A stretch of 64,000 bases of DNA from an uncultured Holophagae bacterium (GTDB lineage Bacteria > Acidobacteriota > Thermoanaerobaculia > Thermoanaerobaculales > Sulfomarinibacteraceae): positions 187,421-251,420 of the forward strand of contig CAWJPY010000006.1 in the NCBI GenBank assembly GCA_963844865.1, given 5' to 3'. The notes below the pieces were generated by a model. It did no database searches. It saw nothing but the letters and a program-made list of their open reading frames with translations, and was not told the DNA's origin. Position numbers and translations under genes: made by a program. Position 1 is the first letter of the stretch, and every line of letters starts with the position of its first letter. This document shows, piece by piece, positions 2,161 to 60,990 of this stretch.

Positions 2161-3684
2161 ATGAAGCGAAACACGATCCGCTACTGGCTGTCCGGAACCC
2201 TCGGCATCGTGCTCGCCGTGGCCCTGGTGATCATGGTCAACTGGCTGGGCGCGCGGCACTACGTCTCCGGAGACTGGACCTCCTCCAACGTCTACTCGGT
2301 GTCCGCCAAGACCCAGAACATCCTGTCGGAGCTCTCCGAGCCGATCCGGGTGGTGGTCTTCATGACGCCGGCCAGCCCCCTGTACGACCAGGTGCACGAG
2401 CTGCTCAACCGCTATGCGGCGGCGAGCGACAAGATCACGGTGGAGTACATCGATCCCGACAAGGAACCACTGAAGACGCGCCAGCTCGCCCAGCAGTTCG
2501 GCATCTCGGCCGCCGACACCGTGGTCTTCTCCGCCGGTGACCGCACCAAGTACGTGACCGCCGACCAGATGGCCGACTACGACTATGCCGGCATGCAGTA
2601 CGGCCAGTCGCCGAGCCTGAAGAGCTTCAAGGGCGAGGAGGAGTTCACGGCCGCCATCCTGTCCCTGGTGGCGCCCGGCGTGCCCAAGGTGTACTTCGTG
2701 ACCGGGCACGGCGAGCCCAAGCTCGCCGCCGCCGCGGCGCCGGGCGGGGGCAACGCCTCGGAGCGCAGCCTGGCGACGCTGAAAGAGGTCCTCAAGCGCG
2801 ACAACATCGACGCCGAGGAGACCACGCTGCTGGGCGGCAAGGTCCCCGACGACGCCGACGTCCTCGCCATCATCGGTCCCACCCAGCCCTACACCGAGAC
2901 CGAGGTGAAGGTGCTCAAGGACTACCTCGACGGCGGCGGTCGCCTCCTGGTGGCCCTCGATCCTCTCATCCAGCCGGACGGGACCATGCGTTCCACCCGC
3001 CTGGAGGGGCTCCTCTCGGAGTACGGGATCAGCGTCGGCAACGACCTGGTGGTGGACCCGTCGCGCCGCCTGCCGTTCTACGATCTGTCGGCGGTCTACC
3101 TCACCGACTTCCCCGCGGGTCCCCTGTCACAAGGTCTCGAGGGTTCGGCGGCCCTGTTCGTGGTCGCCCGCTCCGTGGCCCCTGCCAGCGGCGGCCAGGC
3201 CAAGGCCGTCGTGGACACCTCGGATGAGGGCTGGGGCGAGACCAACCTCAAGCAGCTCCTGACGGGGCAGCCGGTGGCGAAGGACGCCGCCGACGTCGCC
3301 GGGCCCGTCGCGGTGGGCGTGACCGTGGAGGGCTCCACCAAGCCTGCAGACACCGACACCACACAGGCCGACGGAGACAACGGGAAGCTGGCCGCGGCCG
3401 ATGATGCGACCCCTCCGTCCTACCGCATCGCGGCCTTCGGCGACTCCGACTTCCTGTCCGACTTCGAGATCTCCAACGCCGGCAACCTGACCCTGGCCAA
3501 CAACGCCTTCAGCTGGTTGGCGGCCCGTCAGGCCACCCTCGGCATCGCGGCGCGGCCGGTGGAGCAGGTGAACCTGTTCCTGTCGCAGCAGCAGATGCGC
3601 ACCATCCTGCTCATCACGCTGCTCGGGATGCCGGGCGCCGCGATCGTGCTCGGGGTGCTGGTGTGGCGGAGGCGGCGGCACTAG
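2161..3684 (+). CDS. GldG-like ABC transporter auxiliary protein (N- and C-terminal TM anchors)
   Basis: 507-aa ORF with a GGAGG RBS. It has an N-terminal TM, a large soluble region and a C-terminal TM followed by WRRRRH. It is the third gene of the GldA/F/G-type trio. Confidence 0.8.
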   Translation: MKRNTIRYWLSGTLGIVLAVALVIMVNWLGARHYVSGDWTSSNVYSVSAKTQNILSELSEPIRVVVFMTPASPLYDQVHELLNRYAAASDKITVEYIDPDKEPLKTRQLAQQFGISAADTVVFSAGDRTKYVTADQMADYDYAGMQYGQSPSLKSFKGEEEFTAAILSLVAPGVPKVYFVTGHGEPKLAAAAAPGGGNASERSLATLKEVLKRDNIDAEETTLLGGKVPDDADVLAIIGPTQPYTETEVKVLKDYLDGGGRLLVALDPLIQPDGTMRSTRLEGLLSEYGISVGNDLVVDPSRRLPFYDLSAVYLTDFPAGPLSQGLEGSAALFVVARSVAPASGGQAKAVVDTSDEGWGETNLKQLLTGQPVAKDAADVAGPVAVGVTVEGSTKPADTDTTQADGDNGKLAAADDATPPSYRIAAFGDSDFLSDFEISNAGNLTLANNAFSWLAARQATLGIAARPVEQVNLFLSQQQMRTILLITLLGMPGAAIVLGVLVWRRRRH

Positions 3685-3688
3685 CTTG

Positions 3689-3745
3689 GAATTGAGAATT
3701 CTTGATTAAGAATTACGAGCTTAGAATTCAAAATTGAGAATTACC
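3689..3745. repeat. AT-rich array of eight 7-bp phased units (GAATTGA GAATTCT TGATTAA GAATTAC GAGCTTA GAATTCA AAATTGA GAATTAC)
   Basis: Read directly from the sequence. It starts 5 nt after the TAG stop at 3682-3684. The same unit family recurs at 22046-22144. Confidence 0.85.
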
Positions 3746-3834
3746 AACCCCTCCCCAACCCTGACCGCCTGCCACCGGCTAGGCAGGCACGGAGTCTGGT
3801 CAGTGAGAGTCGGAACGTCCGGGAGGCGTCAAGC

Positions 3835-5241
3835 ATGAAACCGAGGAACCTCGTCGTCCTGACCGTTGTCGTGGCGGTGTTCGCGGCCTTCATCCTCTTC
3901 TACGAGCGCCACCAACCCACCACCGAGGAGGCGCGGCAGCGCGCCGACAAGGTCTTCCCCGATCTCGAGCGCGACCAGGTCCAGACGCTGGCGATCCACA
4001 ACTCCCACGGCGACTTCACCCTCGTCAAGAAGGACGGAGCGTGGCGGCTGACCTCGCCCATCGACTTCCCTGCCGACAGCTCCGCTGTGAGCTCCCTGCT
4101 GGGCTCGCTCACCTCGCTCAAGCAGGAGCGCCGCCTGCAGCCGTCCGAGGTCGAGGCCGGCGCCTACGGCCTGGACTCGCCTCCCCTGAAGGTCACGGCC
4201 ACCACCCAGAAGGGCGCCTCCTACGAGCTGGCGGTGGGCGAGGAGACGCCTCTCGGCTCCAAGCGCGCCGTGCGTCGGGACGACAACAAGGACATCCTGC
4301 TCTGTGCCGGCTGGTTCGTGAAGGACATCGACAAGCCCCTGGACGACTGGCGCTCCCGCAGCGTCCTCGACGTGAGCGCCGACCAGGTCGCCTCGCTGCA
4401 GGTCACGAGCGGCTCAGACCACGTGCAGGTGGCCAAGGAGGGCGAGCTGTGGAAGCTCCTGGAGCCGGTCAAAGACCTCGCCGACCGTGACCAGGTCCGC
4501 GGTGTGATCAACGACCTCGACAGCCTCCGGGTGGAGGAGTTCGTCGACGGACAGCAGGCGCAGCCCGGTGCCCTGGGCCTGGATGCGCCTACCTACCGCG
4601 TGACCGTCATCCGCGACGAGGGCCAGGCCCCCATTGAGCTGGACTTCGGGACGACACGGCAGAAGGACGGGACGACCCAGATCGCCTGCCGGCGCTCCGG
4701 CGACGAGGTGCTCTGGGTGAAGGACGACATCAGCACCCGTCTGGCCAAGGCGCCGGTCCGCTGGCGCTCCCCCAAGGTCTTCCCCTTCGACACGTGGAAC
4801 GTGGACAAGCTGAGCCTCGGCGACGGCGAGAACACGGCCTCCGTCACGCGCGCTGAGGGGCTGTGGAAGACCTCCGCGGGCGGTGAGGTCGACGGCAGCG
4901 CGGTCCAGCAGCGCTTGAGCTCCCTGGCCGGTCTCGAGGCGAAGGAGTTCGACCTGCTGCAGCCGGCCACGGCCAAGATGGGCCAGGCCACGGTGGAGCT
5001 GCGCGCTCCGGGCGCCGACGCTTCCGCCGAGCCGACCACCGTCACCTACACCTTCTATCGGCCCCTGACACAGGGCGGGGACGCCATGGTGACGGTGAGC
5101 GCGCGCTCCACGGTCATGAGCGTGGACGCCGCTGCGGCGGAGAAGATCCTCGCCGATCCCGGCGCCCTGAGCGCGCCACAGCCGGAGCCCACCACAACGC
5201 CCGGTGAGCAAGGATCATCCGAGGCTCACCCGCAGGATTGA
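3835..5241 (+). CDS. DUF4340-like protein (N-terminal membrane anchor), commonly follows gldG-like genes
   Basis: 468-aa ORF with a GGGAGG RBS and an N-terminal TM (LVVLTVVVAVFAAFILF). Synteny with the ABC trio supports the call. The family assignment is from memory. Confidence 0.7.
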   Translation: MKPRNLVVLTVVVAVFAAFILFYERHQPTTEEARQRADKVFPDLERDQVQTLAIHNSHGDFTLVKKDGAWRLTSPIDFPADSSAVSSLLGSLTSLKQERRLQPSEVEAGAYGLDSPPLKVTATTQKGASYELAVGEETPLGSKRAVRRDDNKDILLCAGWFVKDIDKPLDDWRSRSVLDVSADQVASLQVTSGSDHVQVAKEGELWKLLEPVKDLADRDQVRGVINDLDSLRVEEFVDGQQAQPGALGLDAPTYRVTVIRDEGQAPIELDFGTTRQKDGTTQIACRRSGDEVLWVKDDISTRLAKAPVRWRSPKVFPFDTWNVDKLSLGDGENTASVTRAEGLWKTSAGGEVDGSAVQQRLSSLAGLEAKEFDLLQPATAKMGQATVELRAPGADASAEPTTVTYTFYRPLTQGGDAMVTVSARSTVMSVDAAAAEKILADPGALSAPQPEPTTTPGEQGSSEAHPQD

Positions 5242-7639: not shown

Positions 7640-7690
7640 CTGACGGACAGCGGCTGCGATCGGCGGCTGCGATCGGCGGCACAGACCGCG

Positions 7691-7750
7691 CTCGACGACT
7701 TCGACCGCGTGCGGGCGATGACGTGGCGCCTCCTCAACCCGAAGGCCTGA
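7691..7750 (+). pseudogene. Remnant of a four-helix-bundle (23S rRNA IVS-type) protein gene, last 19 codons only
   Basis: It translates to LDDFDRVRAMTWRLLNPKA*, matching the C-terminus of the intact gene at 10707-11060 (FDEVRAMTWRLLNPTR*). GCGATCGGCGGCT repeats lie upstream and a homologous CGCTG-rich tail lies downstream. Confidence 0.7.
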
Positions 7751-7926
7751 CGATCCTCAGGTCCAGAGACGCGCCGGGGGCGCTGAACGCCGACGCGGAC
7801 CGCTGCCCACTGCCGCGGTCGCTGTTCGCGGTCGCCGTCTCTGATCGCAGTCGCTGGCGGCTGTCGCCGGGACTGCCGCTGCTCCGGACGCGGGAACGCA
7901 TCGGTGAGATGGGCTGAAAGAACAAC

Positions 7927-9450: not shown

Positions 9451-10548
9451 ATGCGCCTGCTCCATGCCATCGACCGCGCACGCCTCGGCAGCGGCGCCGC
9501 GGTACAGATGCTGGAAGCGGCGGCCGAGCTCTCCCGTCGGGGGCATGAGGTCACCGTCGCGGCGCGACCCGGCGACACCCTGGAGGCCGCCTGCGCGCGG
9601 CTCGAGCTTCCCTTCCTGGGCCTGCCCTTCCGGCACGAGGCCGACCTCGTTTCGGCGTGGCGCCTGCGCCCACGGCTGCGTCGGACGGACGTGGTCCACG
9701 TCCACAAGGGGACAGCCCACGCCGTGGTTCTCGAGGCGGCCGCCGGCCTCGGGCGTCTGCCGGCCGTGGTGGTCAACCGCGGCGTCTCCTTCCCCCTCAC
9801 CGTCCTCAACCGCTGGAAGTACCGCCACCCCAGGGTGCGTGCGGTGGTTGCCGTCGCCGAGGCGGTGCGACGCGTGGTGATCGCGTCGTCCGGCGTCCGC
9901 GCGGAGCGGGTGCACACCATCCACGCCGGCACCGATCCGGTCCGGTTCGACCCGACCCGCGTCCACGGGCGACGGGTCCGGCGCGAGCTCGGGATCGACG
10001 ACGACGAGCTCCTCATCGGGCAGGTGTCGAGCCGCCACTGGAAGGGGTGGCGGGACCTGGTGGCGGCCTTCTCCGTCCTGGCCCGCGAGCGGGCTGGGTG
10101 CTCGCTGCTCCTCGCAGACTGCGAGCCGGCGAGCACGCGCCGCGAGATCGCCGCGCTGGTCGCGGAGGTCGGCCTCTCCCGCAGAGTGCACACCGTCGGC
10201 TTCCGCCACGATCTGCCCGACGTCCTCGCCGCCTGCGACATCGTGGTCGACGCCTCCTGGGACGGCACCGGGATCACCGGCGTCGTGCGCGAGGCCATGA
10301 TGCTGGAGCGCGCCGTGGTGGCCACCGACATCGGCGGCAACGGGGAGCTCGTGATCCACGGCGAGGTGGGCCTGTTGGTTCCCGCGCACGACCCGCGAGG
10401 GCTGGCCGAGGCGCTGGACCGCCTGCTCGGCGACGACGAGCTGCGCAGGACGTTGGGCCGCCGCGCCCGACAGCGCGTGTTGGCGGGCTTCACCACCGCG
10501 CGTCGGGTGGATCTCCTGGAAAATCTGTACCGCAAAGTTGTTGGCTAG
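9451..10548 (+). CDS. Glycosyltransferase family 4 (GT-B, GT1 superfamily)
   Basis: N-terminal MRLLHAI...GGAAVQMLEAAAELSRRGHEV and a C-terminal EGTGITGVVREAMMLERAVVATDIGG block (E-x7-E-like). The ORF is open from GTG 9415, so the start is uncertain. Confidence 0.8.
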   Translation: MRLLHAIDRARLGSGAAVQMLEAAAELSRRGHEVTVAARPGDTLEAACARLELPFLGLPFRHEADLVSAWRLRPRLRRTDVVHVHKGTAHAVVLEAAAGLGRLPAVVVNRGVSFPLTVLNRWKYRHPRVRAVVAVAEAVRRVVIASSGVRAERVHTIHAGTDPVRFDPTRVHGRRVRRELGIDDDELLIGQVSSRHWKGWRDLVAAFSVLARERAGCSLLLADCEPASTRREIAALVAEVGLSRRVHTVGFRHDLPDVLAACDIVVDASWDGTGITGVVREAMMLERAVVATDIGGNGELVIHGEVGLLVPAHDPRGLAEALDRLLGDDELRRTLGRRARQRVLAGFTTARRVDLLENLYRKVVG

Positions 10549-10706
10549 AAGCCTGCTCATCGTGACTCTCGAGGTCTTCGAGAGGAGGCACACACGCAGC
10601 AACCAGCGGCGGCGACAGCGTCCGCCTCAGCGACAGCAGGCAGCGATCAGGGAGCGGCGGACAGCGATCGGCCCGAGCCGCGCGACACGTCAGTGAACGT
10701 GGGCCA

Positions 10707-11060
10707 TCAGCGCGTGGGGTTGAGAAGCCGCCACGTCATCGCCCGCACCTCATCGAAACTTTCGAGCGCGGTAGCAGTCTCGGAAGGATCAACAGCCCCC
10801 GCCGCAGCCAGGAGCCGCAGATGGCTGTCGACCTCCTTGGCCGAGCCGTAGGCGATTCGCCAATACTGTGCGCGATCTCGGCCGGACCTTCCTTGGCCTT
10901 CCGCGAGGTTGGCCGGCACCGAGCTCGCCGAGCGGATGACCTGGTCGGCAATCGACTTGAGTGGAGCCGGTATGCGCATGACGAGCTTGATAGCCGCGCC
11001 GGCTGCATCAAGGGCCTTGCGATGGGCAATGAGGTCGCTGGTGGCGAGGACGTCGGGCAT
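10707..11060 (-). CDS. Four-helix bundle protein (23S rRNA intervening-sequence protein / Avd-like family)
   Basis: SIADQVIRSASSVPANLAEGQGR...YWRIAYGSAKEVDSHL is the family signature. ATG 11060 is preceded by GGAGGTGAAC. The long N-terminal extension of ORF 10707..11438 is low-complexity repeat translation. Confidence 0.85.
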   Translation of the reverse strand: MPDVLATSDLIAHRKALDAAGAAIKLVMRIPAPLKSIADQVIRSASSVPANLAEGQGRSGRDRAQYWRIAYGSAKEVDSHLRLLAAAGAVDPSETATALESFDEVRAMTWRLLNPTR

Positions 11061-11095
11061 GTTCACCTCCGGGTCGTTCATGCCTCTCCCGAAAG

Positions 11096-11190
11096 CCGGT
11101 GGCCAGCCCACGTCAAGGGTGCGGAGCCAGCCGGTCCTCGACCGGCTCGCCCTCGACGAGGGCGAGCCCTTGACATGGGCTGGCCACCGG
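11096..11190 (-). other. Compound hairpin in the 5' leader of the four-helix-bundle gene (24-bp outer stem enclosing two inner hairpins)
   Basis: CCGGTGGCCAGCCCACGTCAAGGG (11096-11119) pairs with CCCTTGACATGGGCTGGCCACCGG (11167-11190). The single mismatch is C-A on the plus strand but G-U on the minus (gene) strand. Inner stems are GCCGGT/ACCGGC and CTCGCCCTC/GAGGGCGAG. Confidence 0.6.
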
Positions 11191-11515
11191 TTACTTCTTC
11201 CGCCGAACGACCCGGAGGTGGCCACGCGGTCTCGCGCCATCCACCATCTGCCCATGGAACGCGTCACAGACTGGCACTGAATCTGAGACTGCTCGACTGA
11301 CGACTGTCGCTGGCACCGTCGCTGACACTGTGGGTGCCCCTGCCACTGTCTCTGTTGCCGAGCTGATCTCGTAGGAATGCACGCGCAATCAAGCGCCGCG
11401 AAGCAGCAACCGGCGACGGCGACAGCGGACCGCATCAACGTCGGGAATCAGCGCCGGTCGGCAGTGTCGGCGAGCAGCGATCAGCGGCAGCAAGCGGTGT
11501 CCGCCACAGAGGTAC

Positions 11516-11590
11516 TGGCTCCGCAGGAGGGATTTGAACCCCCAACCTAGTGGTTAACAGCCACCCGCTCTACCGTTGAGCTACTGCGGA
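11516..11590 (-). tRNA. tRNA-Asn (anticodon GTT), CCA encoded
   Basis: Manual cloverleaf: acceptor TCCGCAG/CTGCGGA, D stem GCTC/GAGC, anticodon loop CTGTTAA, T loop TTCAAAT, discriminator G, then CCA. Total 75 nt. Confidence 0.9.
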
Positions 11591-11633
11591 GCACAACCGG
11601 CGAAGGCTCATTGTAGGTTTCGGTCGCCGATTG

Positions 11634-12437
11634 TCAACCGGCGGACGGGCGCTCCAGCACGAAGGTGAGCCGCTCCGTCGGAGCGCGGCGGAGCGCCTCG
11701 GACAGCGCCTCCCGGGAGGAGAAGCGCGCCCCGGCCGTCCGTCGCCCCTCGCAGTGCAGGCGCACCCGTTCTCCCTCCAGGGGCCAGGGGTGGACCCGCC
11801 AGACCACCCCGTCCTCACTGCTCACTCGGATCTCCTGCAGCTCACCGGACGGGCTGTGCGCGGTGACCGTGAACGGCGCCCCGAGCTGGGCGCAGAGGTA
11901 CACCGAGATGCTGTCACACGCCTCCAGGAGCGCCAGGCTGGCCTCCCAGGCTGCGCCTTCGAGGTAGGGCCGGTAGCGTGCATCGACCCTCAGGCCCTCC
12001 CGCCAGGTCGCCTGCAGGCGCTCCATCTCGGCCCGAAACGCCTGGGCCGCCCGCGCCCCCGTGGTGTCCTCACGGTCGAGGAGAGCCCCCGTCTTCCGGT
12101 CCACCAACCTGCTGTGGTGGGCCGCCACCAACAGCCCCGCGTAGCGGCTGTGCTCGGCGGCCCGGGCGACGCTCGAACGCCAGATGTCCAGATGCGCCGC
12201 CGGCGGCATGCGGTCGAAGGTGACCGGCCGGCCGTCCTCGTCCACGCCCGGGTCGGGATCGAAGTCGGTCCAGCCACCGTCGTGCAGCAGCACCGCGGCG
12301 AGCACCTCGGCTCGAGGCGCCGGCCGCGCAAAGGCCCGGTTCCCCCAGTGCTCCGCGATCTGCCAGGCCAGCCAGGCATGGGAGACCTGGGTGATCAGGA
12401 GGGGGCCCGCCGGGTCGCGCTCGCGGTGCAGGAACAC
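11634..12437 (-). CDS. DUF3891-like hypothetical protein
   Basis: The C-terminal 267 codons of the 980-aa minus-strand ORF carry LITQVSHAWLAWQIAEHWGN...LLHDGGWTDFD. GTG 12437 is the proposed start. The family call is from memory. Confidence 0.55.
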   Translation of the reverse strand: MFLHRERDPAGPLLITQVSHAWLAWQIAEHWGNRAFARPAPRAEVLAAVLLHDGGWTDFDPDPGVDEDGRPVTFDRMPPAAHLDIWRSSVARAAEHSRYAGLLVAAHHSRLVDRKTGALLDREDTTGARAAQAFRAEMERLQATWREGLRVDARYRPYLEGAAWEASLALLEACDSISVYLCAQLGAPFTVTAHSPSGELQEIRVSSEDGVVWRVHPWPLEGERVRLHCEGRRTAGARFSSREALSEALRRAPTERLTFVLERPSAG

Positions 12438-57834: not shown

Positions 57835-57936
57835 CAGCCGCGGCATCCCGCGTCCGAATCGGCGACTGCGATCGGCGACTGCGATCGGCGAGCTCGGTGC
57901 CCGCGAACCTGAGACGCGCACGGTGCGCCAGAGCGG

Positions 57937-58120
57937 GTGCCAGGCACGCTTTCGAATGAGGCGATCCGCGTCCTATCGAATCAAGACGGCGTGCCAGGCA
58001 CCCTCTCTGGTGCTCCCCAAGCGAGTGCCCCTGGCGTACCCGACTCGTGGGCCGGTGCCAGGCACCGGGTCGTCCGCTGCCAGACGGCGGTGCGCCCCTT
58101 CCCAAACGGTGCCTGGCTCC
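57937..58120. repeat. Cluster of four GTGCC(A/T)GGCAC palindromes (REP-like)
   Basis: Cores at 57937-57947, 57991-58001, 58055-58065 and 58108-58120 (the last degenerate), read directly. Confidence 0.8.
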
Positions 58121-58151
58121 GCCTCTCGCCTGCCCGGATCGCGTTCGGGCC

Positions 58152-58184
58152 ATGACGTGGCGGCTCCTCTACCCGACGGCGTGA
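58152..58184 (+). pseudogene. Remnant of a four-helix-bundle protein gene (last 10 codons)
   Basis: MTWRLLYPTA* followed by a tail (GTCCAGAGACGCGCCGGGG...GTCGCCGCCGC..TGGTTGC) that is homologous to the sequence downstream of 7750 and downstream of the intact gene at 10707. Confidence 0.6.
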
Positions 58185-58547
58185 GGACGGCCACGTCCAG
58201 AGACGCGCCGGGGCGCGGATCGCTGATCGCCGTCCGCTGACGCTGCCGCGGACGCCGTCGCTGGTCACTGCCGCGGTCGCCGCCGCCGTGATGCTGGTTG
58301 CATCAGTCTCCCGCACCAAGTCGCGTTGCGCGGTGGCGGCAGCGATTGCCCCACCCCCGCCGGCAGGCGTATAGTGGGCCGTCGCGCCGGCCCGCGCCCT
58401 CGGTGAGCCGCCTCTCCACCGGACCCAGCACTCCCAGCGATCGCAGCCTCCGGGCCACGGACGAGGAACGGCCGCCGCGGAGCTCTGGTGCGACGCCACA
58501 TCGCGGACCGGCCGACTGTCCGAGCAACCAGAACAGGAGGTCTTTCG

Positions 58548-60713
58548 ATGATCCGAGTCGCAACCTTCGCCCTGGCCGGCGTCCTCGCGCTGACCGCCCT
58601 GGGGAGCTCCCCAGCCCTGGCCGACGACCAGGCCCCCACCGACGCGCCGCAGCCGCCGCGCACCAACCCGTTCTTCTCCCCCAGCCCGCTGCCCTTCCAG
58701 GCGCCGCAGTTCGACCGCATCCAGGACGCGGACTTCAAGCCGGCCCTGGAGGAGGGGATGCGCCGGCAGAAGGCCGAGGTCGAGGCCATCGCCTCGAACC
58801 CGGAGCCCCCCACCTTCGCCAACACCCTGGTGGCCCTGGAGAAGACCGGCCAGCTCCTGGGCCGCGTCAACAACGTCTTCAACGCCTTGACCGGGGCCAA
58901 CACCGACCCCGAGCTGCAGGCGCTGCGGGAGGAGATGGCGCCGAAGCTGGCCGCCCATCGCGACGCCATCTACCTCAACGGGAAGCTGTTCGACCGCATC
59001 CAGGCGCTGTATGAAAAGCGTGCCGAGCTGAAGCTCGATCCCGAGTCGGAGCGGCTGCTGGAGTACGACTACAAGGAGTTCGTGCAGGCCGGCGCCAAGC
59101 TCTCCCCGGCCGACAAGGCCAAGCTGTCCGAGCTCAACGCCGAGGAGGCGACCCTGAGCGCCCGCTTCACCAACCAGCTCCTGGCCGCCAACAAGGCCGG
59201 GGCCCTGGTGATCACCGACAAGTCCGACCTCGCCGGCCTCAGCGACAGCGCCCTGGCCGCCGCGGCCCAGGCCGCCGCCGACCGGGGTCTGAAGGACGCC
59301 TGGGTGCTGCCCCTGCAGAACACCACCCAGCAGCCCGCCCTGCAGTCGCTGTCCAACCGGGCCACCCGGGAGAAGCTGTTCGAGGCCTCCTGGATGCGCA
59401 CCGAGCACGGCAACGCCGACGACACCCGCGCCATCGTCCAGAGGCTGACCGAGATCCGCGCCGACAAGGCCGCTCTGCTGGGCTTCGACACCTACGCCGC
59501 CTGGAAGCTCCAGGACCAGATGGCGAAGACCCCCCAGGCGGTGGATGACTTCCTCGCCCGCCTGGTGCCGCCGGCCACCGCCAAGGCGCGCCAGGAGGCC
59601 GCCGACATCCAGGCCCAGATCAAGGCCGACGGCGCAGACTTCACCCTCGCCCCCTGGGACTGGGACTTCTACGCCGAGCAGGTGCGCAAGGCCCGCTTCG
59701 ACCTCGACGAGTCCCAGATCCGGCCCTACTTCGAGCTCGACAACGTGCTCCGCAACGGCGTCTTCTACGCGGCCAACCAGCTCTACGGCCTGACCTTCAC
59801 CGAGCGCCACGACCTGCCGGTCTACAACCCCGACGTACGCGTGTTCGAGGTCCACGACGCCGACGGTTCGCCCCTGGCCCTCTTCTACTGCGACTACTTC
59901 GCGCGGGACAACAAGTCCGGCGGCGCCTGGATGTCCAACTTCGTCGACCAGTCCAAGCTCCTGGGCACGAAGCCGGTGGTCTACAACGTGGCGAACTTCA
60001 CCAAGCCGGCGCCCGGGCAGCCCGCCCTGCTGAGCTGGGACGACGTGACCACCATGTTCCACGAGTTCGGTCACGCCCTGCACGGGATGTTCGCCGATAC
60101 CACCTACCCCAGCCTGTCCGGCACCTCCGTGGCGCGCGACTTCGTGGAGCTGCCCTCCCAGATCAACGAGCACTGGGCGCTCTACCCCCAGGTCTTCGCG
60201 CACTACGCCGTGCACTACAAGACCGGGGAGCCCATGCCCGCCGACCTGGTGGCCAAGATCAAGAAGGCCGCCACCTTCAACCAGGGCTATGCCCTGACCG
60301 AGCTGCTGGAGGCCGCCAGCCTGGACATGGCGTGGCACACGCTCGGCGCCGACAGCCCCCAGCAGGATGTGGACCACTTCGAGAAGAGCGCCTTGGAGAA
60401 GGCGGGGCTCGCCCTCGCCGCGGTGCCGCCCCGCTACCGCTCCAGCTACTTCGCCCACGTCTTCGGCGGCGGCTACGCGGCCGGCTACTACGCCTACCTG
60501 TGGGCGGAGATGCTGGACAACGACGCGTACGCGTGGTTCGGCGAGCACGGCGGTCTGACCCGGGCCAACGGGCAGCGCTTCCGCGACATGATCCTGTCCC
60601 GGGGCAACACCGAGGACCTGGCGACCATGTACCGTGCGTTCCGCGGCCGCGACCCGGAGATCGGCCCCATGCTCGAGCACCGGGGGCTGCCGACAACGAC
60701 CCCGCAGCGCTGA
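58548..60713 (+). CDS. dcp: Peptidyl-dipeptidase Dcp (M3 family zinc metallopeptidase), secreted
   Basis: ATG 58548 after CAGGAGG and a signal peptide (ALTALGSSPALA). Zinc site FHEFGHALHG. Full-length M3A pattern. Confidence 0.92.
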   Translation: MIRVATFALAGVLALTALGSSPALADDQAPTDAPQPPRTNPFFSPSPLPFQAPQFDRIQDADFKPALEEGMRRQKAEVEAIASNPEPPTFANTLVALEKTGQLLGRVNNVFNALTGANTDPELQALREEMAPKLAAHRDAIYLNGKLFDRIQALYEKRAELKLDPESERLLEYDYKEFVQAGAKLSPADKAKLSELNAEEATLSARFTNQLLAANKAGALVITDKSDLAGLSDSALAAAAQAAADRGLKDAWVLPLQNTTQQPALQSLSNRATREKLFEASWMRTEHGNADDTRAIVQRLTEIRADKAALLGFDTYAAWKLQDQMAKTPQAVDDFLARLVPPATAKARQEAADIQAQIKADGADFTLAPWDWDFYAEQVRKARFDLDESQIRPYFELDNVLRNGVFYAANQLYGLTFTERHDLPVYNPDVRVFEVHDADGSPLALFYCDYFARDNKSGGAWMSNFVDQSKLLGTKPVVYNVANFTKPAPGQPALLSWDDVTTMFHEFGHALHGMFADTTYPSLSGTSVARDFVELPSQINEHWALYPQVFAHYAVHYKTGEPMPADLVAKIKKAATFNQGYALTELLEAASLDMAWHTLGADSPQQDVDHFEKSALEKAGLALAAVPPRYRSSYFAHVFGGGYAAGYYAYLWAEMLDNDAYAWFGEHGGLTRANGQRFRDMILSRGNTEDLATMYRAFRGRDPEIGPMLEHRGLPTTTPQR

Positions 60714-60735
60714 ACCCACACCTGACCGCTCTCGC

Positions 60736-60772
60736 GGCGGGCGCCGGAGGTACCGGCGCCCGCCGTTTCTCT
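60736..60772 (+). terminator. Rho-independent terminator after dcp (12-bp GC stem GGCGGGCGCCGG / CCGGCGCCCGCC, then a T/C-rich tail)
   Basis: Perfect stem with a 5-nt loop, followed by GTTTCTCTCTC. It starts 23 nt after the stop. Confidence 0.75.
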
Positions 60773-60827
60773 CTCCTGGTGCGGTCTGCGACGCCGGATC
60801 GCCGGGGCCCTTCGCTTCGGAAAGGCC

Positions 60828-60990
60828 AGAGGCGGTGCCAGGCACCGTTCGGAAAGGGGCGCACCGCCGTCTAGCAGCGCACGACCCGGTGCCTGGCACC
60901 GGCTTTGACGTGGCAACGTGCATCGACCCGGTGCCTGGCACCGGCTTTGACGTGGCAACGTGCATCGACGGGGTGCCCCGCACCGGCGTC
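60828..60990. repeat. REP-like palindrome cluster including a 42-bp tandem repeat (2 full copies plus a partial third)
   Basis: GGTGCCAGGCACC at 60834-60846. The unit CCCGGTGCCTGGCACCGGCTTTGACGTGGCAACGTGCATCGA occurs at 60885-60926 and is repeated identically at 60927-60968. A degenerate start of a third copy is at 60969-60990. Confidence 0.85.

Follow-up and report, generated by a model that had tools for sequence, protein, structure and literature searches.

The four-helix-bundle gene and the layout of its leader

The stretch of DNA analysed here (64 kb, hereafter the window) carries on its minus strand a gene for a four-helix-bundle protein of 117 aa (10710-11060, stop codon 10707-10709), the product of which matches PF05635 (E 9.8e-18) and TIGR02436 (E 2.8e-18) and has 2GSC as its nearest solved structure. 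Its neighbors in the window are a tRNA-Asn gene, a glycosyltransferase gene, a DUF3891 gene and a phosphoglucomutase gene. Gene callers start the protein at an upstream ATG at 11081, giving 124 aa. Because this first ATG is missing in two related loci (L047 and L025), while the second ATG and the GGAGGTG ahead of it are invariant in 58 homologous leaders, we take the 117-aa start to be the real one. Proteins of the PF05635/TIGR02436 family are very widespread, being found in rRNA intervening sequences and as the Avd protein of diversity-generating retroelements. Here, no reverse transcriptase is present among the genes flanking the module in the window or among the called genes of L081, L324 and L325.

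Relatives of the protein number 3755 database sequences at E <= 1e-5, many of them 75-92% identical. From a scan of one genome per species we fetched 80 loci in 23 assemblies, 17 of which come from a single Holophagae MAG. The carriers are almost all Acidobacteriota MAGs (Thermoanaerobaculia, Holophagae, Sulfomarinibacteraceae), together with two further MAGs labelled Chondromyces and Methylomirabilota. A second family copy (P0006) lies on the window's own contig, searching viral contigs with the protein returned no relatives, and the plasmid collection holds one distant relative, which is cyanobacterial. The dN/dS ratios of paralogues (0.09-0.31) are those of purifying selection, and the proteins are therefore expressed and under selection. 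The window also holds two remnants of four-helix-bundle genes on the plus strand, at 7673-7900 and 57867-58300, one of which retains the last 23 codons alone and the other a degraded 104-codon match. Both are followed by a CTG-type low-complexity tract and both are without a leader, the family decaying from the 5′ side.

Upstream of the gene, on the same minus strand, lies a compound hairpin (11096-11190), which we followed by inverted-repeat search, folding and covariation in the 58 homologous leaders. Its two 24-nt arms, 11096-11119 and 11167-11190, are complementary at 23 of 24 positions (96%) with a spacing of 47 nt, and between them are two inner inverted repeats, 11126-11136/11140-11150 and 11144-11155/11157-11168. 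Measured from the invariant ATG at 11060, the hairpin lies 36-130 nt upstream. The first-pass annotation of this DNA had described it as a 95-nt structure in the leader of the gene, with a 24-bp stem, two inner stems and outer arms of 23/24 complementarity, and on each of these points the coordinates, folds and inverted-repeat search agree with it. It had also proposed folding the element, and the 95 nt of the gene strand do fold to -81.8 kcal/mol, compared with -44.3 +/- 3.4 kcal/mol for 200 dinucleotide shuffles (z = -10.9). The plus strand is nearly its equal (-77.6 kcal/mol, z = -9.4). The single stem mismatch is a U·G on the gene strand and an A·C on the opposite strand, as had been noted earlier. 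At the base of the stem are the conserved boxes UA/GCCGGUG...CACCGGC and near its top the conserved boxes GUCAAGGG...CCCUUGAC, while the 10-12 bp in the middle are variable and the apex (11120-11166) consists of two small hairpins. The whole window contains one copy of this leader.

Enclosing the hairpin is a second, outer helix, which the first-pass annotation lacked and which provides the chief functional clue. It pairs 11205-11227 with 11057-11079, complementary at 20 of 23 positions, and holds both the Shine-Dalgarno (SD) sequence and the start codon. The 5′ arm (11205-11227, minus strand) is non-coding and nearly invariant in the family, and contains CACCUCC at 11220-11214, an anti-SD sequence that mimics the 3′ end of 16S rRNA. 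It pairs with the SD GGAGGUG (11070-11064) and the invariant AUG (11060-11058) of the PF05635/TIGR02436 gene, both of which lie in the 3′ arm (11057-11079, minus strand; GAACGACCCGGAGGUGAACAUG). The dispensable first AUG is at 11081-11079. The SD of the gene is an unusually strong one, reading GGAGGUGA(U/C)C. Between the two helices the strands form an internal loop. Its left side (11191-11204, minus strand) is purine-rich, 74% purine over the 58 leaders, and ends just before the inner stem in a family-wide UA, the final two bases being T in 56/58 and A in 58/58. Its right side (11080-11095, minus strand), which lies unpaired opposite the left, is also purine-rich (67% on the gene strand over the 58 leaders) and SD-like (GGGAGAGGC). 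The 201-nt leader as a whole folds to -140.4 kcal/mol (z = -10.7) in the order helix, internal loop, long hairpin.

In the alignment of the 58 leaders, the parts follow one another as the 5′ arm CATGGTCACCTCCGGGTCGTTC, a variable purine-rich loop ending in UA, GCCGGTG, 10-12 variable bp, GTCAAGGG, a variable apex, CCCTTGACA, a variable segment, CACCGGC, a purine-rich SD-like loop and finally ATGAACGACCCGGAGGTGACCATG. The duplex boxes GTCAAGGG and GCCGGTG are thereby set about one helical turn apart. An alternative pairing of the left arm with the left loop, as in an anti-anti-SD switch, is weak (mean z = -0.6), being clear in about one third of the copies. Two coding explanations of the leader were rejected. 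A leftward ORF from the left arm is either absent or encodes 5-132 aa of unrelated sequence, the exception being an intact second gene in L032. A uORF or N-terminal extension running across the hairpin fails on two counts: the lengths of the indels are not divisible by three, and the first ATG can be dispensed with.

Conservation and covariation of the two helices

The leader profile finds a match, in part if not in full, beside the start of every one of the 77 related genes for which 200 nt or more of upstream DNA is available, a few leaders being partial only (e.g., L077). The linkage is strict in the other direction as well, since across 85 family loci every match adjoins a four-helix-bundle gene and no leader was found apart from one. 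We aligned the 58 leaders of normal length and imposed a hand-defined structure of 46 pairs, in which 94.6% of cells pair, as against 86.3% in shuffles and about 40% when the partners are slid. Two-sided, that is, double compensatory, changes occur in 22 of the 46 pairs (211 cells), and none of 500 shuffles reaches any of the pairing or covariation measures. RNAalifold recovers both helices, with double changes in 20 of 40 pairs. Much of the covariation falls in the inner helix, where 17 of 25 pairs show double changes; at pair 63-131, for example, AU is found 25 times, GC 19 times and UA 10 times. The outer helix is nearly invariant in the alignment, and its changes are compensated independently in L012, L025 and L019, while in L106, which is 60% identical, all four outer-helix substitutions are compensated.

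Comparisons at closer range follow the same pattern. The leader of the orthologous strain L324 is identical to that of the window, and where the stem of the window has CCGG/CCGG and GGCC/GGCC, that of L325 has CUGG/CCAG and GGCG/CGCC. L013 and L061 are syntenic orthologues in two species, and the stems of these differ by compensated changes, which argues for long-term maintenance and not recent conversion alone. The left arm does not differ even between copies that are saturated for synonymous changes (dS ~1.5), and the transitions from paired to unpaired segments are abrupt and conserved. The stem on which the first-pass annotation had based its leader structure has thus been kept in homologous cassettes through many compensatory changes, and is therefore a selected feature; neither a missing stem nor non-compensatory change, either of which that annotation would have counted against it, is what the 58 leaders present. 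We rejected hypervariability of the stem middle, since its divergence is no greater than the synonymous divergence of the gene.

With no counterpart in Rfam, the leader is a candidate for a new cis-regulatory RNA motif, one that lends itself to modelling and to searches. At the Rfam gathering threshold, the whole window yields two tRNAs alone, and a permissive scan of 10550-11520 returned sub-threshold, hairpin-shaped chance matches (mir-1956, 24 bits against 95; VA, 20 against 62). In a search of the literature on TIGR02436, PF05635 and S23p, we found no description of such a leader and one relevant item, a paper on the Coxiella intervening sequence. Metagenome and viral scans with the pattern GTCAAGGG-N15-45-CCCTTGAC gave 240 loci, of which three belong to the family and the rest are chance palindromes.

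Whether the complementarity is maintained at the level of RNA or of DNA is less simple than the window would suggest. Functional RNA stems usually tolerate G·U pairs, and the first-pass annotation had read the G-U in the stem as a sign of RNA-level structure. This argument does not carry over to the family, where G·U is no commoner than A·C: the inner helix has 18 cells of G·U or U·G (8 column events) and 21 of A·C or C·A (16 events), and the outer helix has 16 cells of G·U against 39 of A·C, all over the 58 leaders. The G·U of the window (CAUG/CGUG) is a single recent transition, because at this position L081 and L325, the copies closest to it, both pair perfectly as CAUG/CAUG. Inner stems that are perfect over the 25 aligned pairs are found in 21 of the 58 leaders. 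In L035, L037, L045 and L046 (2272-2497), which come from one Holophagae MAG, an almost perfect palindrome of about 50 bp replaces the apex and the GTCAAGGG box, and the whole leader folds to between -156 and -182 kcal/mol. In L032, two complete genes stand head to head and the whole 140-nt spacer between them is palindromic, centered on the hairpin apex, from which it follows that the outer 5′ arm arose when the start of the gene itself was copied in inverted form. In all single-gene copies, the strands between the helices are non-complementary, both being purine-rich on the gene strand. These loops, together with the sharp boundaries, the conserved non-coding left arm and a polarity relative to the gene that is always the same, with the SD and AUG exactly covered, point to a strand-specific, and hence RNA, role. 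On balance, we consider that the evidence probably favors a function at the RNA level over one at the DNA level.

Mobile cassettes, flanking tracts and transcription

Copies of the module within one genome share about 700-1000 bp, in the order (CAGNGN)n tract, leader, gene and (NCNCTG)n tract. In the window, the upstream low-complexity hexamer tract (CAGNGN)n lies at 11231-11360 and the downstream tract (NCNCTG)n at 10576-10706, both on the minus strand, and in the family the two tracts are complementary. Their complementarity tolerates shifts in register, with a mean duplex energy over 60 loci of -162 kcal/mol, compared with -136 +/- 8 kcal/mol in shuffles, while the pairing of the window's own tracts is weak (-157.5 vs -144.8 +/- 6.9 kcal/mol). 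A solo copy of the downstream type of tract (11362-11515, minus strand) lies between the tRNA-Asn gene and the module. It is in direct orientation with respect to 10549-10700, with which it shares GCAGCAACCnGCGnCGGCGACAGCG, and it pairs with 11271-11360 in the predicted fold of 967 nt. The distant relative on the Geminocystis plasmid NZ_AP014824.1 (L323, 1440-1906), whose gene is 36% identical, has (GGGAAA)n upstream and (TTTCCC)n downstream, and inverted flanks made of simple repeats may characterize this gene family in general.

At 20 related loci, the core sits within an element of 740-936 bp that has terminal inverted repeats of about 30 bp of the ISL3 type (GGYTCATCCGGRAWW..., GGYTCATCCGG...) and is flanked by 8-bp target duplications, which are identical at 8/8 positions in six of the 20 and whose targets resemble AACGTT. 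L006 additionally contains an autonomous ISL3-family insertion sequence (3108-4410) with a 403-aa transposase (DDE_Tnp_ISL3, E 7e-69); its terminal repeats are the same as those of the cassettes, and its insertion site, immediately next to one of them, is in AACGTT-like tandem repeats. Together, these loci identify the module, in the related genomes, as a passenger in ISL3-type mobile insertion cassettes. A literature search on such passenger cassettes yielded nothing usable. The cassettes end well outside the leader, the left end lying about 140-245 bp upstream of it. Judged from these ends, the recombination sites are the terminal repeats and not the hairpin, contrary to the first-pass annotation, which had offered the hairpin as a possible recombination site of the element.

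In the window, no terminal repeat passes a consensus search, and L081 and L325 are likewise without recognizable terminal repeats. By eye, 10549-10575 (minus strand; ...CACGAUGAGCAGGC) resembles the ISL3-type repeat CACGGAATTCCGGATGAGCC, and we tentatively regard it as the degenerate right end of a cassette, an internally deleted remnant that abuts the stop codon of the glycosyltransferase gene. The ends of the same core in L020, L028 and L065 (~2180-2220 and 2990-3010) are of another sort: the inverted repeat there is CTTGTCCAAGACA / TGTCTTGGACAAG, with GGAATTC-type tandem repeats as flanks. Since some copies have no terminal repeats and others have different ones, the gene, leader and tracts make up a portable core that is independent of any one transposon and, going by the ends themselves, has become enclosed by transposon ends of more than one kind.

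Immediately upstream in the window, and on the same strand, is the tRNA-Asn gene with a near-consensus promoter of the sigma-70 type (11516-11637, minus strand; tRNA at 11516-11590, TTGACA-16-TACAAT at 11637-11610), and no terminator is predicted between it and the leader, so that read-through transcripts carrying the whole leader are expected. The three closest copies (window, L081 and L325) each have a co-oriented tRNA or gene directly upstream, and in each the tracts fill all the space that separates this gene from a convergent one downstream. Over the loci compared, downstream neighbors are convergent in 41/56 cases and upstream neighbors co-oriented in 34/57. A general preference for tRNA genes was rejected, as a tRNA gene occurs within the fetched flanks in the window and L021 alone. 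A sigma-70-like site on the sense strand is lacking in 56 of the 58 leaders, that of the window included, and by eye neither the sigma-54 nor the ECF consensus fits. On the antisense strand, 31/58 leaders have a promoter-like site, TTGACA-16/17-TAT(T/C)C(G/C), at a constant position. The TA of this site is the invariant UA of the left loop, its -10 element lacks the final T, and no conserved ORF lies ahead of it.

Proposed function of the leader and comparison with known systems

We give about an even chance to a reading in which the hairpin forms the core of a fold-back RNA leader of about 170 nt that blocks translation, with the long duplex acting as a clamp and possibly as an RNase III site. 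A transcript entering from upstream, whether from the tRNA-Asn promoter in the window or, elsewhere, from whichever gene the cassette landed behind, would carry the 21-24-nt copy of the anti-SD region, which would pair with the strong SD and the AUG of the gene. The near-perfect inner hairpin would join the two arms and stack on them, placing the ribosome-binding site inside a structure of about -140 kcal/mol, in which two purine-rich strands would be held unpaired in the internal loop and translation would be blocked. The lock could then be released by cleavage of the duplex (at least 24 bp, with RNase III as the candidate enzyme), by a trans-acting factor, or by a transcript that starts between the arms. 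We infer an active role of the RNA, the block on translation and the way in which it would be relieved. If the leader does act as such a lock, expression of the gene should require processing or unfolding.

Several of the observations above sit uneasily with this fold-back lock. The gene strand shows no excess of G·U over A·C, and the perfect stems and the ~50-bp palindrome expansion are behavior typical of DNA palindromes. Given the origin of the arm that L032 reveals, the complementarity could persist by gene conversion from arm to arm. Even after a cut by RNase III in the inner stem, the outer duplex of 21-24 bp would hold together, and upstream neighbors are co-oriented in no more than the 34 of 57 loci given above. 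The strand-asymmetric purine-rich loops, in turn, are unexpected for a plain DNA palindrome and support the lock. The strongest competitor, which we regard as unlikely but well worth considering, is precisely such a palindrome, acting at the DNA level as the relic of a head-to-head duplication of the gene start, with RNA folding incidental to it. Complementarity would then be kept up by intramolecular conversion or repair, or the repeats would serve as a hairpin or cruciform to which a sequence-specific protein binds at the GTCAAGGG and GCCGGTG boxes. It would account for the symmetric mismatch spectrum without a G·U excess, the many stems perfect over 25 pairs, the expansion in L035, L037, L045 and L046, the two-gene perfect palindrome of L032, the spacing of the two conserved duplex boxes by about one helical turn and the near-equal folding of the plus strand. 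Set against this are the loops, which in all single-gene copies are non-complementary and purine-rich on one strand although conversion would tend to erase such differences, as well as the conserved sharp boundaries of paired and unpaired segments, the constant polarity with its exact cover of SD and AUG, and the compensated differences between the orthologues L013 and L061. Were the DNA-level reading right, the family would offer a clean natural case of nested palindromes maintained over the long term.

Less probable still is a reading along the lines of the first-pass annotation, in which the duplex is chiefly a site of RNase III processing or stability that together with the bracketing tracts lets the RNA of the gene be cut out of read-through transcripts, as a free-living counterpart of ORF-bearing 23S rRNA intervening sequences. 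RNase III could plausibly act on the perfect duplex, which is at least 24 bp long, the (CAGNGN)n and (NCNCTG)n tracts are more complementary than their shuffles over 60 loci, the cyanobacterial plasmid relative is bracketed in a similar way, and in the window a tRNA gene precedes the module and no terminator is predicted between the two; furthermore, the Coxiella intervening sequence, which carries an ORF of the PF05635 family, is excised by RNase III (PMC4990558). Yet the window has no rRNA context and its flanks pair weakly, G·U is not favored, and processing alone leaves the invariant anti-SD arm and the conserved boxes unexplained. That the palindrome is a divergent promoter or operator, a control region inherited from a two-gene form with the TTGAC boxes of both arms as -35 elements, seems to us very unlikely. 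TTGACA is indeed conserved in both arms and the antisense promoter-like site keeps its position in 31/58 leaders, but a sense-strand -10 candidate is found in 2/58 only, the antisense -10 lacks its final T and has no conserved ORF downstream, and the two-gene L032 does not have the TA. The apical length, moreover, varies from about 25 to 110 nt, which is incompatible with a fixed double-stranded operator geometry. The idea that the hairpin is a recombination or transposition site is largely refuted, despite the multi-copy nature of the module and an insertion of ~110 nt at ATGAAC^GACC in L009 and L014, with a footprint in L047. The ISL3-type ends and 8-bp duplications of the 20 loci lie well outside the leader, an autonomous ISL3 element with the same ends is present in L006, and the hairpin never occurs apart from the gene.

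For the fold-back lock, the closest precedent is found in IS10 and IS50, where inverted repeats near the ends of the element reportedly sequester the transposase start on read-through transcripts. As there, an upstream inverted repeat pairs with the SD and AUG, its upstream arm is non-coding, and the structure is carried by a mobile element whose insertions place it downstream of foreign promoters. Here, however, the protected gene is a passenger four-helix-bundle gene and not the transposase, and the arms, 21-24 nt long, are split by a conserved compound hairpin of 95 nt (up to 170 nt) that has boxes of its own. A further difference is that no sense-strand promoter of the sigma-70-like kind, the one kind covered by the scan, was found between the arms in 56/58 leaders, and because of this an IS10-type escape route is unproven.

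The 23S rRNA intervening sequences sit in helix 9, 25 or 45 of 23S rRNA. Those with S23p ORFs (Leptospira, Coxiella) share with the present module a PF05635 protein, a long duplex by the ORF and complementary bracketing sequences. They differ in that the conserved duplex here lies upstream of the ORF and does not enclose it, that the enclosing tracts are low-complexity hexamer repeats, and that excision here is a proposed step; unlike them, too, the window has no Rfam rRNA match, its matches being tRNAs only. The likeness to ISL3 insertion cassettes and MITEs consists in the terminal inverted repeats and 8-bp duplications of the 20 related loci and in an ISL3 transposase gene with the same ends in the same MAG, a likeness from which the window, L081 and L325 depart in having no recognizable terminal repeats. 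With REP/REPIN elements and integron attC sites the hairpin shares conserved boxes near its base and a complementary, variable middle, and its (R)TAG, conserved on the 5′ side only, can be compared with the GTAG of REPs. In contrast to REP/REPIN elements, the leader is never free-standing or arrayed, has no RAYT context and has far longer stems. It also differs from attC in lacking IntI context and GTTRRRY/RYYYAAC (it reads GTTCAG/ATGAAC by eye), in lying 5′ of the gene, and in having copies that are dispersed singly and not in arrays. The leader is not a REP, an attC site or a component of a retroelement.

For families with many dispersed copies per genome, the module thus offers a strictly gene-linked, strongly covarying leader of about 170 nt that buries the ribosome-binding site, and the travel of the gene in ISL3-type cassettes is a possible link between intervening sequences and mobile cassettes. 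It is conceivable, though we hold it improbable, that the leader and complementary tracts mark a class of RNA-excisable, selfish four-helix-bundle cassettes that ride on any host transcript, be it tRNA, mRNA or rRNA. RNase III would cut such cassettes out, translation would stay locked until they were processed, and 23S intervening sequences that contain S23p ORFs would represent one particular outcome, a cassette that landed in an rRNA helix. If true, this would give intervening sequences an origin and a life cycle.

Some minor observations concern individual loci. In L009 (695-949) and L014 (2242-2497), which belong to different MAGs, the ~110-nt insertion is highly structured and lies exactly at the ATGAAC^GACC point of the right arm, and at the same point L047 (~2480-2497) has CCAGTAAC, which resembles a footprint. 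L106 has a second, degenerate hairpin of the same type at 9901-9947, upstream of a hexamer tract that there reads (CACNGN)n; the module of which it is part is oriented divergently and truncated where the contig stops. The L106 gene is apparently frameshifted at a run of C. Elsewhere in the window, a 13-nt palindrome, GGTGCCWGGCACC, forms two clusters (57936-58120 and 60834-60984) that bracket 58300-60800, with 12 matches at <=2 mismatches vs 3.7 expected. The clusters include a 42-nt tandem repeat (x2.5) at 60882-60987, and the unit CTGGCACCGGCTTTGAC is close to the sigma-54 -24/-12 consensus. The same motif also flanks the two-gene palindrome of L032, in a MAG that differs at the level of the phylum.
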